Origin: a phage
Strand: one strand, 5' to 3'
NCBI GenBank assembly: GCA_036253035.1
Contig: GCA_036253035.1_4123.1
DNA: 64,000 nt
The position numbers and the translations under genes were made by a program. The notes below the pieces were generated by a model. It saw only the letters and a program-made list of their open reading frames with translations. It was not told the origin of the DNA and searched no databases. Shown piece by piece: positions 61,597 to 63,620 of the stretch. Numbering within the stretch: position 1 is the first letter of the stretch; every line of letters starts with the position of its first letter.

Positions 61597-61637
61597 TTCG
61601 TTACCCTCTGTAGTTGATGAAATAATTATAGCAAAAA

Positions 61638-61662
61638 GGGCCGACCGAAGTCAACCCTTTTT
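61638..61662. terminator. bidirectional terminator hairpin with embedded minus-strand TTGACT-N18-TATAAT
   Basis: GGGCCGACCGAAGTCAACCC flanked by A5 and T5. Confidence 0.55.
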
Positions 61663-61666
61663 ATTA

Positions 61667-63316
61667 TTAATAAGTTCTAATAATCTGATTATTTTCAGAT
61701 GATATTTTTTTAATCACATTAATAAGTTCATCAACAATAGATTCATCATAGTTAATGCGAGCAAAATTATATCCTGATTCTTTTGCAAATTCAAGTTTTA
61801 TTTCATCAATTTCCATTTGTTTTTGTAAGCACTCTTCACTTCTATGAAATATTGGGCAATAGTTTGTATGCTGTGCACCATCAACTTCAATGATTAGATT
61901 ATAATCTGGTACATAAAAATCATATCTTCTATTTCCCATAAATTCTATTGATTCTTCAGTTCTGAATTGAAAATGAAAATCAATATTATTTTTGATTAGG
62001 AACAATGCGACTATCATTTCATATGATGATAAATCATTTGATGAAATAATCCCTCCTAATGTTAAAATAGGTTGACTAAAGATTCTTTTGTGACGTGCAA
62101 CCGAGGGTTTGTATTTATTATTAGACATAATTTCCAAAGATATTGTTGGATTTATTAGGTCTTTATACATATTTTCGTATCTCTCAAGAAAATTGAGAAT
62201 TGTTGGAGTTAATATTACCCCATTAATATCTAATAAAATTTTCGTCTTATTACCGTCAAACTCTGAAGAACTGTTAATATAAAAACCAATAAAAGAATCA
62301 CCACCCTTATATTTTATTATTTCATACCATTCAAATGGTGTGTAAGAACATCCAATTGGAATGAATTTTATATTATCATGATTCATATAATGAAATCCCT
62401 TATACTCATTAACAACTTCTTCACATGCTTCATATTCATTATAATTAAATTTTTCAGTATTATAAAAACATACAGAGCAACTAGGATTCCTAATATGTTG
62501 TGCAATACTCACTACATCAGTACTTTTACATACTTTACATTTTTTTCTAATTATTGATTTGGAATTTTTAATGTTTAAATTTGATAAATCAAAAGTATGA
62601 TTATTAGCATATCCAAAAAACATCATACGATAAATAAAATTTTCATTATTATAATTAAAACGAGGAATATCTGTTATATTACTATCTAAACTATATAAAA
62701 AATCATCAATTGTCATATGATAGGTAACATATTCATTAAAAGATATTACTATTTTTGTTTTTTTGTTATTCCATTCTGAATAGTATGATACATAAAATCC
62801 ATAAAAAATAACTTCAACATTTTTAAACTCTTTTATCTTATTCAATATTTTTTTCGAATATTCAGTGGGTGTGATAGAGTTAAAATGCATATATGGAGAT
62901 ATAGCTTCTAACTGAAGAGCAGTAAAATATGATATATCTTTATCACCAACCGTTATTATATTTGGTGTTGAATAATAAGATGACAATCTCATTGACTTAT
63001 CATAATCAAATATTTTTTTTTCTTTACTACATTTTTTTAATTCTTCAGAATTAAAATGTTTTTTATTCGGAAAAGAACCATTATTAGAATGTTGTCTTAG
63101 AATATCATATCTAATCTTTTTTGTTATACCATTTATTTCATATAAAATATATGTTTTTTCCCCTTCCCATTCAAGTATTGAGTTAATATCAAAACCAATA
63201 AAGTCACAATTTATTTCTTTTATATTAGAAAATATATTTCTTACCTTTTCAGCAATAATATAAGGTTTTGAACGTTTTTTTTTGTCAATAAAACAAAAAC
63301 TTCCAATCATATACAA
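61667..63316 (-). CDS. putative site-specific/homing-type endonuclease with C-terminal DUF559/Vsr-like nuclease domain
   Basis: C-terminal RRYDFYVPDYNLIIEVDGAQH; internal duplicated module (FIGFDINSILEWEGEKTYILYEING / FIGFYINSSSEFDGNKTKILLDING); CxxC pairs; very AT-rich. Confidence 0.55.
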   Translation of the reverse strand: MYMIGSFCFIDKKKRSKPYIIAEKVRNIFSNIKEINCDFIGFDINSILEWEGEKTYILYEINGITKKIRYDILRQHSNNGSFPNKKHFNSEELKKCSKEKKIFDYDKSMRLSSYYSTPNIITVGDKDISYFTALQLEAISPYMHFNSITPTEYSKKILNKIKEFKNVEVIFYGFYVSYYSEWNNKKTKIVISFNEYVTYHMTIDDFLYSLDSNITDIPRFNYNNENFIYRMMFFGYANNHTFDLSNLNIKNSKSIIRKKCKVCKSTDVVSIAQHIRNPSCSVCFYNTEKFNYNEYEACEEVVNEYKGFHYMNHDNIKFIPIGCSYTPFEWYEIIKYKGGDSFIGFYINSSSEFDGNKTKILLDINGVILTPTILNFLERYENMYKDLINPTISLEIMSNNKYKPSVARHKRIFSQPILTLGGIISSNDLSSYEMIVALFLIKNNIDFHFQFRTEESIEFMGNRRYDFYVPDYNLIIEVDGAQHTNYCPIFHRSEECLQKQMEIDEIKLEFAKESGYNFARINYDESIVDELINVIKKISSENNQIIRTY

Positions 63317-63325
63317 ATCTCCAAT

Positions 63326-63556
63326 TCAACTTAATATAGCTTTCCAGTACTGAACCCGTCCAGCACCATTAATCTTAGCCTGAATCTTATCTTTTTCGAC
63401 AAGACCTTCTTTGTAATCGATTGAAGTATTATTGCACTGAATTACATCTAAGTCAAGTACTTCTTGCGTAGTTAATGATGTATTATCTGCTATTTGTTGT
63501 AGAGTAATTACATCAGTACCAAAGAATTCAGCCAATCGTATAAAAGATAGTTTCAT
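63326..63556 (-). CDS. hypothetical protein (76 aa)
   Basis: ATG with AGAAGAGGT RBS. Confidence 0.5.
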   Translation of the reverse strand: MKLSFIRLAEFFGTDVITLQQIADNTSLTTQEVLDLDVIQCNNTSIDYKEGLVEKDKIQAKINGAGRVQYWKAILS

Positions 63557-63595
63557 GTGTTACCTCTTCTGTTGATGAAAGTATTATAGCAAAAA

Positions 63596-63620
63596 GGGCT
63601 GACCGAAGTCAACCCTTTTT
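63596..63620. terminator. bidirectional terminator hairpin (direct repeat of 61638 element)
   Basis: GGGCTGACCGAAGTCAACCC flanked by A5 and T5. Confidence 0.55.

Follow-up and report, generated by a model that had tools for sequence, protein, structure and literature searches.

The 64,000-nucleotide (nt) phage sequence analysed here, contig GCA_036253035.1_4123.1 of NCBI GenBank assembly GCA_036253035.1 (hereafter the window, by which the whole stretch is meant), comes from an Asteriusvirus, a Rak2-like jumbo coliphage of the PBECO4/121Q group (~350 kb) whose closest record is vB_EcoM_CRJP21 (CRJP21; 99.6% identity). It contains a large open reading frame (ORF) of 549 codons, ORF549, which is probably a free-standing homing-endonuclease-type gene with a C-terminal Vsr-like domain as in I-Bth0305I (the 'EDxHD' type) and DUF559 proteins. 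ORF549 behaves like such a gene because its distribution is sporadic, an empty site exists, and different endonuclease genes are found at the same spot in relatives; on this point the original prediction, made from the letters of the window, holds. ORF549 and its parts are listed below, with residue numbers in the 549-codon numbering used throughout.

61667..63316, - strand: ORF549, 549 codons from a TTG, candidate free-standing homing endonuclease gene, guanine-plus-cytosine (GC) content 0.241.
61670..62029, - strand: C-terminal Vsr-like (DUF559/EDxHD-type) nuclease domain, residues 430-549.
62162..62311, - strand: Cys-less beta module copy 3, residues 336-385.
62465..62545, - strand: CxxC...CxxC zinc-ribbon-like module, residues 258-284.
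62681..62830, - strand: Cys-less beta module copy 2, residues 163-212.
63077..63220, - strand: Cys-less beta module copy 1, residues 33-80.
63311..63325, - strand: left junction, with the ribosome-binding site (RBS) of ORF549 itself (GGAG, 63322-63319).

The product is probably 547 amino acids (aa) long, from the ATG at 63310, since GGAG lies 8 nt before this codon and gene callers give 547 aa in relatives.

The assignment to the Vsr/DUF559 nucleases relies on a structural model and on residue conservation. The DUF559/Vsr-like motif proposed for the end of the 549-aa ORF is indeed present (DFYVPDYNLIIEVDGAQH, residues 466-483), and AlphaFold2 supplied with a 120-sequence alignment modelled residues 400-549 at a predicted local distance difference test (pLDDT) score of 88. 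Fold comparison of this model, which was required given the weakness of sequence searches of the PDB, confirmed the Vsr fold; as modelled, ORF549 belongs to the Vsr/DUF559 nucleases, and the nuclease-fold match asked for in the original prediction was obtained. ORF549 retains the acidic, His and Lys residues that are conserved across 120 homologues: D466, E477, H483 and K507 are invariant in the family, and D479 and D504 show little or no variation, according to the alignment used. In up to 120 homologues, E477, D479, H483 and D504 (Glu, Asp, His, Asp) vary little or not at all, and they may correspond to the I-Bth0305I active site.

The last 130-190 aa of ORF549 match many phage proteins at 28-39% identity (tblastn), and the alignment of these relatives yields the invariant pattern D..Y.P..N...E.(D/Q)G.QH...D..K. 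Among these relatives are free-standing genes of Lactobacillus, Vibrio and Klebsiella phages, as well as a gene annotated as a 'group I intron-associated VSR homing endonuclease', by which the terminase gene of Staphylococcus phage KSAP7 is split. A profile built from six sequences of the domain, the kind of search originally suggested as a check, retrieved 533 relatives, many of them labelled very-short-patch-repair endonuclease and many with DUF723 or DUF4379 modules. Matches in PHROGs were to 'HNH endonuclease' (E 7.5e-20) and 'homing endonuclease' (E 3.3e-18). Searches of the PDB returned nothing with the whole protein or with the 120-sequence profile; with the small profile, the top matches were spurious designed-repeat proteins, followed by 3hrl, 3r3p and AbaSI at E ~0.2, the match to 3r3p being not significant (E 0.22). 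A whole-protein homology search was empty, its word index having failed on the AT-rich sequence, and a search with the C-terminal half alone recovered just a partial copy of the same protein. Membership of ORF549 in a defence system was considered and rejected, as PADLOC matches were marginal only (E ~0.007-0.01).

The genomic context of ORF549 is compact. All genes in this part of the window lie on the - strand, and the order of transcription is ORF110, element copy 2, ORF76, ORF549, element copy 1 and a 257-aa P-loop/AAA-like gene.

63626..63958, - strand: upstream flank, ORF110, 110 aa, 3' fragment of a different endonuclease-type gene.
63563..63622, - strand: element copy 2, of the promoter-early stem-loop (PeSL) type, terminator hairpin at 63591-63620.
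63326..63556, - strand: ORF76, 76 aa, resident small early gene, PHROG 34150.
61605..61664, - strand: element copy 1, PeSL-type, terminator hairpin at 61633-61662.
60823..61596, - strand: downstream flank, 257-aa P-loop/AAA-like (ATPase-like) gene, PHROG 1250, outside the insertion.

ORF76 occurs once in each of 29 Asteriusvirus records, whether or not a nuclease gene lies downstream of it. Full-length ORF549, by contrast, is absent from 28 of these 29 and was found by tblastn in a single one of 50,697 phage records, CRJP21, at 99.8% protein identity; it is thus polymorphic in presence at a fixed site among close relatives. The empty site is seen in four SD Salmonella phages (SD-2_S15 and relatives), where the sequence reads ...CTGGAAAGGAGTTTTAAGTAA/AAAAAGGGTTGAC... 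(the stroke marks the site). In SD-2_S15, the end of ORF76 and the terminator mark the exact limits of the missing ORF549, and in the empty-site phages element copy 1 follows ORF76 directly, both elements flanking ORF76 alone. ORF76 is therefore a resident gene, present in genomes without ORF549, and not the companion of the nuclease that it had been taken for. In the same region of SD-2_S15 (L002, 1743-2555), the ATPase-like gene is truncated to 96 aa and neighbouring ORFs are shortened. No function can be put forward for ORF76 from matches in Pfam (none even at E 10), the PDB or PADLOC.

Other occupants fill the site in ~24 records. In these genomes a large ORF begins exactly at GGAGTTTTAAGTAATG, its ATG overlapping with the last nucleotides of ORF76, and stops 0-5 nt short of the element; in relatives, this ATG is the start of at least four other large endonuclease-type ORFs. 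In the window and CRJP21 the occupant starts within ~2 nt of this common start point, the upstream GGAG of the other relatives is replaced by GCTA, and ORF549 has its own RBS. The occupants other than ORF549 are the following.

474-aa protein with a related Vsr-like end: JNE01 and ELP-22.
379-aa protein: PBECO4.
565-aa protein: A4; split in E9.1.
471-aa protein: Turkey3.
Degraded series: WPEC5.

The slot of WPEC5 (L010, 1624-3123) holds short ORFs with a repeated MILISVSFRLHL... start, and its content has the look of an endonuclease-type gene reduced to a frameshifted remnant rich in repeats. Judged from these alignments, only the nuclease ORF is gained or lost, and the slot accommodates at least five types of gene. 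ORF549 is the lowest-GC stretch of 1650 bp in all 64 kb (0.241, against 0.352 on average for the window, which places it in the lowest 0.03% of stretches of this length), and the other occupants are likewise AT-rich (GC 0.25-0.30), whereas ORF76 is not (0.333). A window-specific cluster of substitutions was also sought as a hint of the cleavage site; the differences in ORF76 are few and scattered except for 13 nt at the junction, and no inference was drawn from them.

The neighbouring type of occupant shows a clear trace of movement. The gene for the 474-aa protein is 99.65% identical at the nucleotide level between JNE01 (L003, 2858-4282) and ELP-22 (L006, 1624-3048), and its flanks are far less conserved (ATPase gene, 65.7%; ORF76, 93.1%), a pattern that points to recent horizontal transfer of the slot occupant.

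The ~430 aa preceding the nuclease domain are best explained as a long, fast-evolving predicted DNA-binding region in which three Cys-less beta modules are combined with one zinc ribbon. The internal duplication noticed at the outset is real, with three copies in place of two: a module of ~45 aa with the pattern FIGF..S.E/W..KTK....NG... recurs near residues 33-80, 163-212 and 336-385, with local alignment z-scores of 4.7-7.1 against shuffles (z ~0 for the nuclease domain used as control). All three copies are devoid of Cys and lack the zinc ligands. Similar Cys-less modules are present in other occupants of the slot, and copy 2 (163-212) weakly matches the A4-type slot protein. The zinc-ribbon-like module (258-284) aligns with the DUF723/DUF4379-type module of homologues; its second CxxC (C280, C283) is nearly invariant, and it is the sole well-modelled part of the N-terminal region (pLDDT 81-86). 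The full-length AlphaFold2 model has a mean pLDDT of 57, without a confident model for the N-terminal modules. An hhalign comparison of the Cys-less modules with a canonical DUF723-type zinc module gave a probability of 31% in a sensible register, which is suggestive only of a link between them. Residues 1-408 have no relative among 1.84 billion representative proteins, save a partial copy of the ORF549 protein itself.

This orphan, poorly modelled N-terminal region of 408 aa might be taken to mean that ORF549 goes back to an old invasion and is now inactive and decaying, as might the fragmented endonuclease gene (ORF110) in the neighbouring slot and the degraded occupant in the same slot of WPEC5. 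We nevertheless hold decay to be extremely unlikely: the reading frame runs uninterrupted for 547 aa at 24% GC, where chance stops are frequent, it has its own RBS, and its catalytic positions are intact.

A selected phage function is an alternative that we judge quite improbable. The nuclease would then be a working tool of the phage, for degradation of host or competitor DNA, exclusion, repair or recombination, and would be kept by selection in this lineage. ORF549 is intact with its conserved nuclease residues, is 99.8% identical in protein sequence between the window and CRJP21, and the 547-aa call follows ORF76 in all six places shown, which stem from independent assemblies and metagenomes. 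Its predicted promoter is of the early sigma-70 type, corresponding to the time of host takeover; a denV-type repair gene adjoins the locus in relatives; and marker exclusion is among the benefits that homing endonucleases can bring (PMC2988022, PMC13096335). On the other hand, most close relatives live without ORF549, with unrelated nuclease types or nothing in its place, no notable match to defence-system models was obtained, and the long modular predicted DNA-binding region suggests site-specific over bulk cleavage.

Another reading centres on ORF76. The locus could be a dedicated site for swapping nucleases, at which the conserved, translationally coupled ORF76 protein partners any endonuclease as regulator, immunity or specificity factor; the Cys-less beta modules, common to otherwise unrelated occupants, would then represent a new modular DNA-recognition repeat. 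We consider this very unlikely.

The two sequences that bracket ORF76 and ORF549 require separate consideration, as they had been proposed to bound the insertion. The near-identical 35-nt elements quoted in the original prediction are present (61630-61664 and 63588-63622) but are part of a longer direct repeat of 60 nt with 90% identity (61605-61664 and 63563-63622), the 30-nt core of which occurs exactly twice in the window against 0 expected (100 shuffles). On the - strand, each copy reads AAAAAGGGTTGAC-TTCG-GTC(A/G)GCCCTTTTT-GCTATAAT, with an RBS and an ATG ~25 nt later. Copy 1 folds into the hairpin AAAAAGGGTTGAC-UUCG-GTCGGCCCTTTTT (-19.6 kcal/mol, z -4.5) and copy 2 into the hairpin at 63591-63620 (-21.9 kcal/mol, z -6.0), a U-run following both of these UUCG-loop structures. 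In copy 1, the -35 hexamer TTGACT (61654-61649) lies inside the stem and is followed by an 18-nt spacer, TGcTATAAT with the -10 ending at 61625, and then the RBS and ATG of the ATPase-like gene at 61596; in copy 2, the -35 starts from 63612 and the -10 ends at 63583. The two elements are the best sigma-70 promoter matches in the 16 kb scanned, with 11 of 12 consensus positions and an extended -10 TG. Given hairpin, U-run and promoter match, each copy would act as terminator for the upstream unit and as promoter for the downstream unit, copy 2 being the predicted promoter of ORF76 and ORF549.

Such elements are widespread. Related copies are found at 3-10 places in every Asteriusvirus record, as well as in RaK2, K64-1, GAP32, CBB and other Rak2-like phages and in large Vibrio and Aeromonas myoviruses, for a total of 615 places in 174 records. 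At this locus, 3-4 copies lie within ~5 kb, always at unit boundaries, and the boundaries differ between relatives. Their anatomy recalls the PeSLs, composite terminator/promoter repeats of T4-type phages that are tied to indels (PMC2839356, PMC4122927). Both combine, as far as can be read from the letters here, a stem-loop, a sigma-70-like promoter, a Shine-Dalgarno sequence and a start codon; both are repeated, clustered in variable regions and adjoin indels; and the stem matches the A3-4G3-loop-C3T3-4 form of the KVP40/nt-1 pair (PMC2839356, PMC4122927). BLAST also detected sequences related to the elements in ValKK3, phi-ST2 and Aeromonas phage 65. They differ in that the carrier is an Asteriusvirus, a Rak2-like jumbo phage and not a T4-type phage, and in that the -35 hexamer is inside the hairpin, whereas in PeSLs it lies downstream. 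In a full-text literature search, PeSLs were discussed for T4-type phages only; the RpoD-like promoters of CBB are concentrated in its presumed early region (PMC5259590). The repeats are thus best described as predicted PeSL-type regulatory elements that delimit early units with or without a nuclease gene, not as products of the insertion. That they are target-site duplications was rejected, as both copies surround ORF76 in genomes without the nuclease ORF. The claim that they bound an endonuclease insertion is not supported: in SD-2_S15 they flank ORF76 alone, and elements stand at many unit boundaries.

A second level of variation does follow the repeats, a whole repeat-bounded unit being missing in some of the relatives compared. 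UE-S1 has the order ATPase gene, element, 119-aa gene, as if ORF76, its occupant and one element were absent; ph0011 has denV alone before the ATPase gene, the units between them missing; and in Turkey3 a different endonuclease-type gene stands alone between two elements. The mobile unit could be the repeat-bounded cassette (element, ORF76, ORF549, element), moved by PeSL recombination, with excision and integration of a mini-circle; the nuclease would be cargo and would not promote its own spread. Besides UE-S1, ph0011 and Turkey3, this possibility draws on the two 60-nt direct repeats flanking the unit, on the identity between the window and CRJP21, which extends no further than the outer edge of element copy 2 and gives way there to a resemblance of the window to WPEC5 and Turkey3, and on the demonstration of mini-circles between tandem PeSLs in T4-type phages (PMC2839356). 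We regard it as unlikely for ORF549: the polymorphism is bounded by the end of ORF76 and the terminator, not by the repeats; ORF76 stays while its downstream partner varies among at least five types; and the 474-aa occupant, whose conservation greatly exceeds that of either flank, argues for movement of the ORF by itself. As short dispersed homologies, PeSL-type repeats may mediate loss or exchange of whole units. PeSL-mediated movement would account for variation at that level but leaves the ORF-level indel unexplained. The comparison between relatives suggested at the outset came out divided: ORF549 is sporadic and a whole repeat-bounded unit appears to be missing in UE-S1, yet the indel that concerns the nuclease comprises the ORF alone.

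The preferred interpretation of ORF549 as a homing-endonuclease-type gene suggests the following scenario. Phage endonuclease genes of the free-standing kind typically occupy intergenic slots as passengers without a promoter of their own (PMC2988022), and ORF549 would be such a passenger at the 3' end of a small early unit composed of the element 2 promoter, ORF76, ORF549 and the element 1 terminator. The interval from the end of ORF76 to the terminator is a hot slot in Asteriusvirus genomes. During co-infection, the enzyme would cut a relative devoid of the gene somewhere near the locus, and repair from the nuclease-carrying genome would copy the ORF in, the conserved end of ORF76 and the terminator/promoter element likely providing the flanking homology for gene conversion or cassette exchange.

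Several observations weigh against this interpretation. The match to Pfam DUF559 (PF04480) is below the gathering threshold of 20.6 bits, at 15.6 bits for the whole protein and 20.2 for the domain alone, and no Pfam match to a NUMOD or helix-turn-helix (HTH) module, typical of this region in characterised EDxHD enzymes, was obtained in the N-terminal region. The empty site is confined to one clade of reduced genomes (310-326 kb) with a truncated ATPase-like gene and could be a secondary deletion. There is no direct trace of transfer of ORF549 itself, because all carriers found have the same ORF76 allele, the same downstream ATPase-like gene and near-identical flanks. T4 free-standing endonuclease genes usually have middle or late promoters, whereas that predicted for ORF549 is of the early type. 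Of the points on which the interpretation is built, the distribution, the junctions, the fold, the conserved residues, the anatomy of the elements and the mobility of a neighbouring type of occupant have been shown, and the cleavage of a relative's DNA by ORF549 and its biased inheritance are inferred.

Three known systems come close to ORF549. As in I-Bth0305I and the 'EDxHD' group, including Hef, a DNA-binding region (predicted here) is N-terminal to the nuclease, and the genes are intron-borne or free-standing in large phages; Hef, a free-standing, T4-related, Vsr-like enzyme, likewise takes the place of a different endonuclease gene at one locus (PMC3239194; Sandegren et al. 2005 via PMC2988022). 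ORF549 differs by its three Cys-less modules and one zinc ribbon in place of a detected NUMOD or HTH, by its length (547 aa, ~2x that of characterised relatives), and by a similarity to 3r3p that is not significant (E 0.22). With proteins that combine DUF723/DUF4379 and Vsr-like domains, such as that of KSAP7, it shares a nuclease domain 28-36% identical with D...E.(D/Q)G.QH...D..K invariant and one zinc-ribbon module at the equivalent position; those proteins, however, are 100-380 aa long with one to four Cys-containing modules, whereas three of the ORF549 modules lack zinc ligands. Like the T4 seg and mob genes (PMC2988022), ORF549 is intergenic, in the orientation of its neighbours, a promoter-less passenger on an existing transcript, AT-rich and sporadic, with different genes in one slot across phages. 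Unlike them, it encodes a Vsr-like nuclease in place of a GIY-YIG or HNH enzyme and lies on a predicted early transcript, seg and mob being on middle or late ones.

ORF549 probably belongs to a well-known kind of selfish phage DNA, and the finding, although real, is fairly ordinary: the element types, the nuclease fold and slots with changing occupants are known already, and the current understanding of how such elements work is unchanged. What is new is modest, namely the 547-aa architecture with its orphan N-terminal region and the extension of PeSL-type elements to Asteriusvirus. The locus nonetheless adds a thoroughly documented case of a probable endonuclease gene, Vsr-like and free-standing, from a Rak2-like jumbo phage, and a variable early region of Asteriusvirus is likewise structured by PeSL-type repeats, which are known from T4-type phages. 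It also offers a natural series, empty, degraded and with five occupants starting within ~2 nt of one point, usable for homing and competition experiments between jumbo coliphages under development for therapy. The orphan predicted DNA-binding region of ~430 aa might interest miners of new DNA-recognition modules.

ORF110 shares 99% identity with the C-terminus of a Turkey3 protein of 432 aa, in which DUF4379-like repeats are followed by a T5orf172/MUG113-like end, and 100% identity with a fragment in WPEC5, a phage in which that gene is split into several pieces. Asteriusvirus genomes that are otherwise close carry one of two deeply diverged alleles of the 257-aa P-loop/AAA-like gene, with 88-94% versus 66-69% nucleotide identity to the window (homologues in L005-L008 and L010), and the switch between alleles falls right at element copy 1. 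Downstream of this gene (58712-60755, - strand), six back-to-back or overlapping small ORFs of 104-122 aa apparently encode membrane proteins, at least the last two being clear paralogues; CRJP21 labels several of them 'regulator of chromosome condensation', a label that looks doubtful.

Elsewhere in the window, a second composite intergenic motif, unrelated to the PeSL-type elements, recurs on the + strand at 44755, 46015, 46825, 48044, 49280, 50502 and 56073. It consists of a hairpin (GCCAGTACT-loop-AGTACTGGC), a T-rich run and then TTTGTATTAAATA, which resembles T4-type late promoters (TATAAATA), and may represent a terminator plus late-promoter unit. A repeat of ~50 nt, ATTATGCCAGTACTATCAATC..TGTCAATAGTACTGTGATAAT, is present in three copies on the + strand, at 25408, 28600 and 28895.

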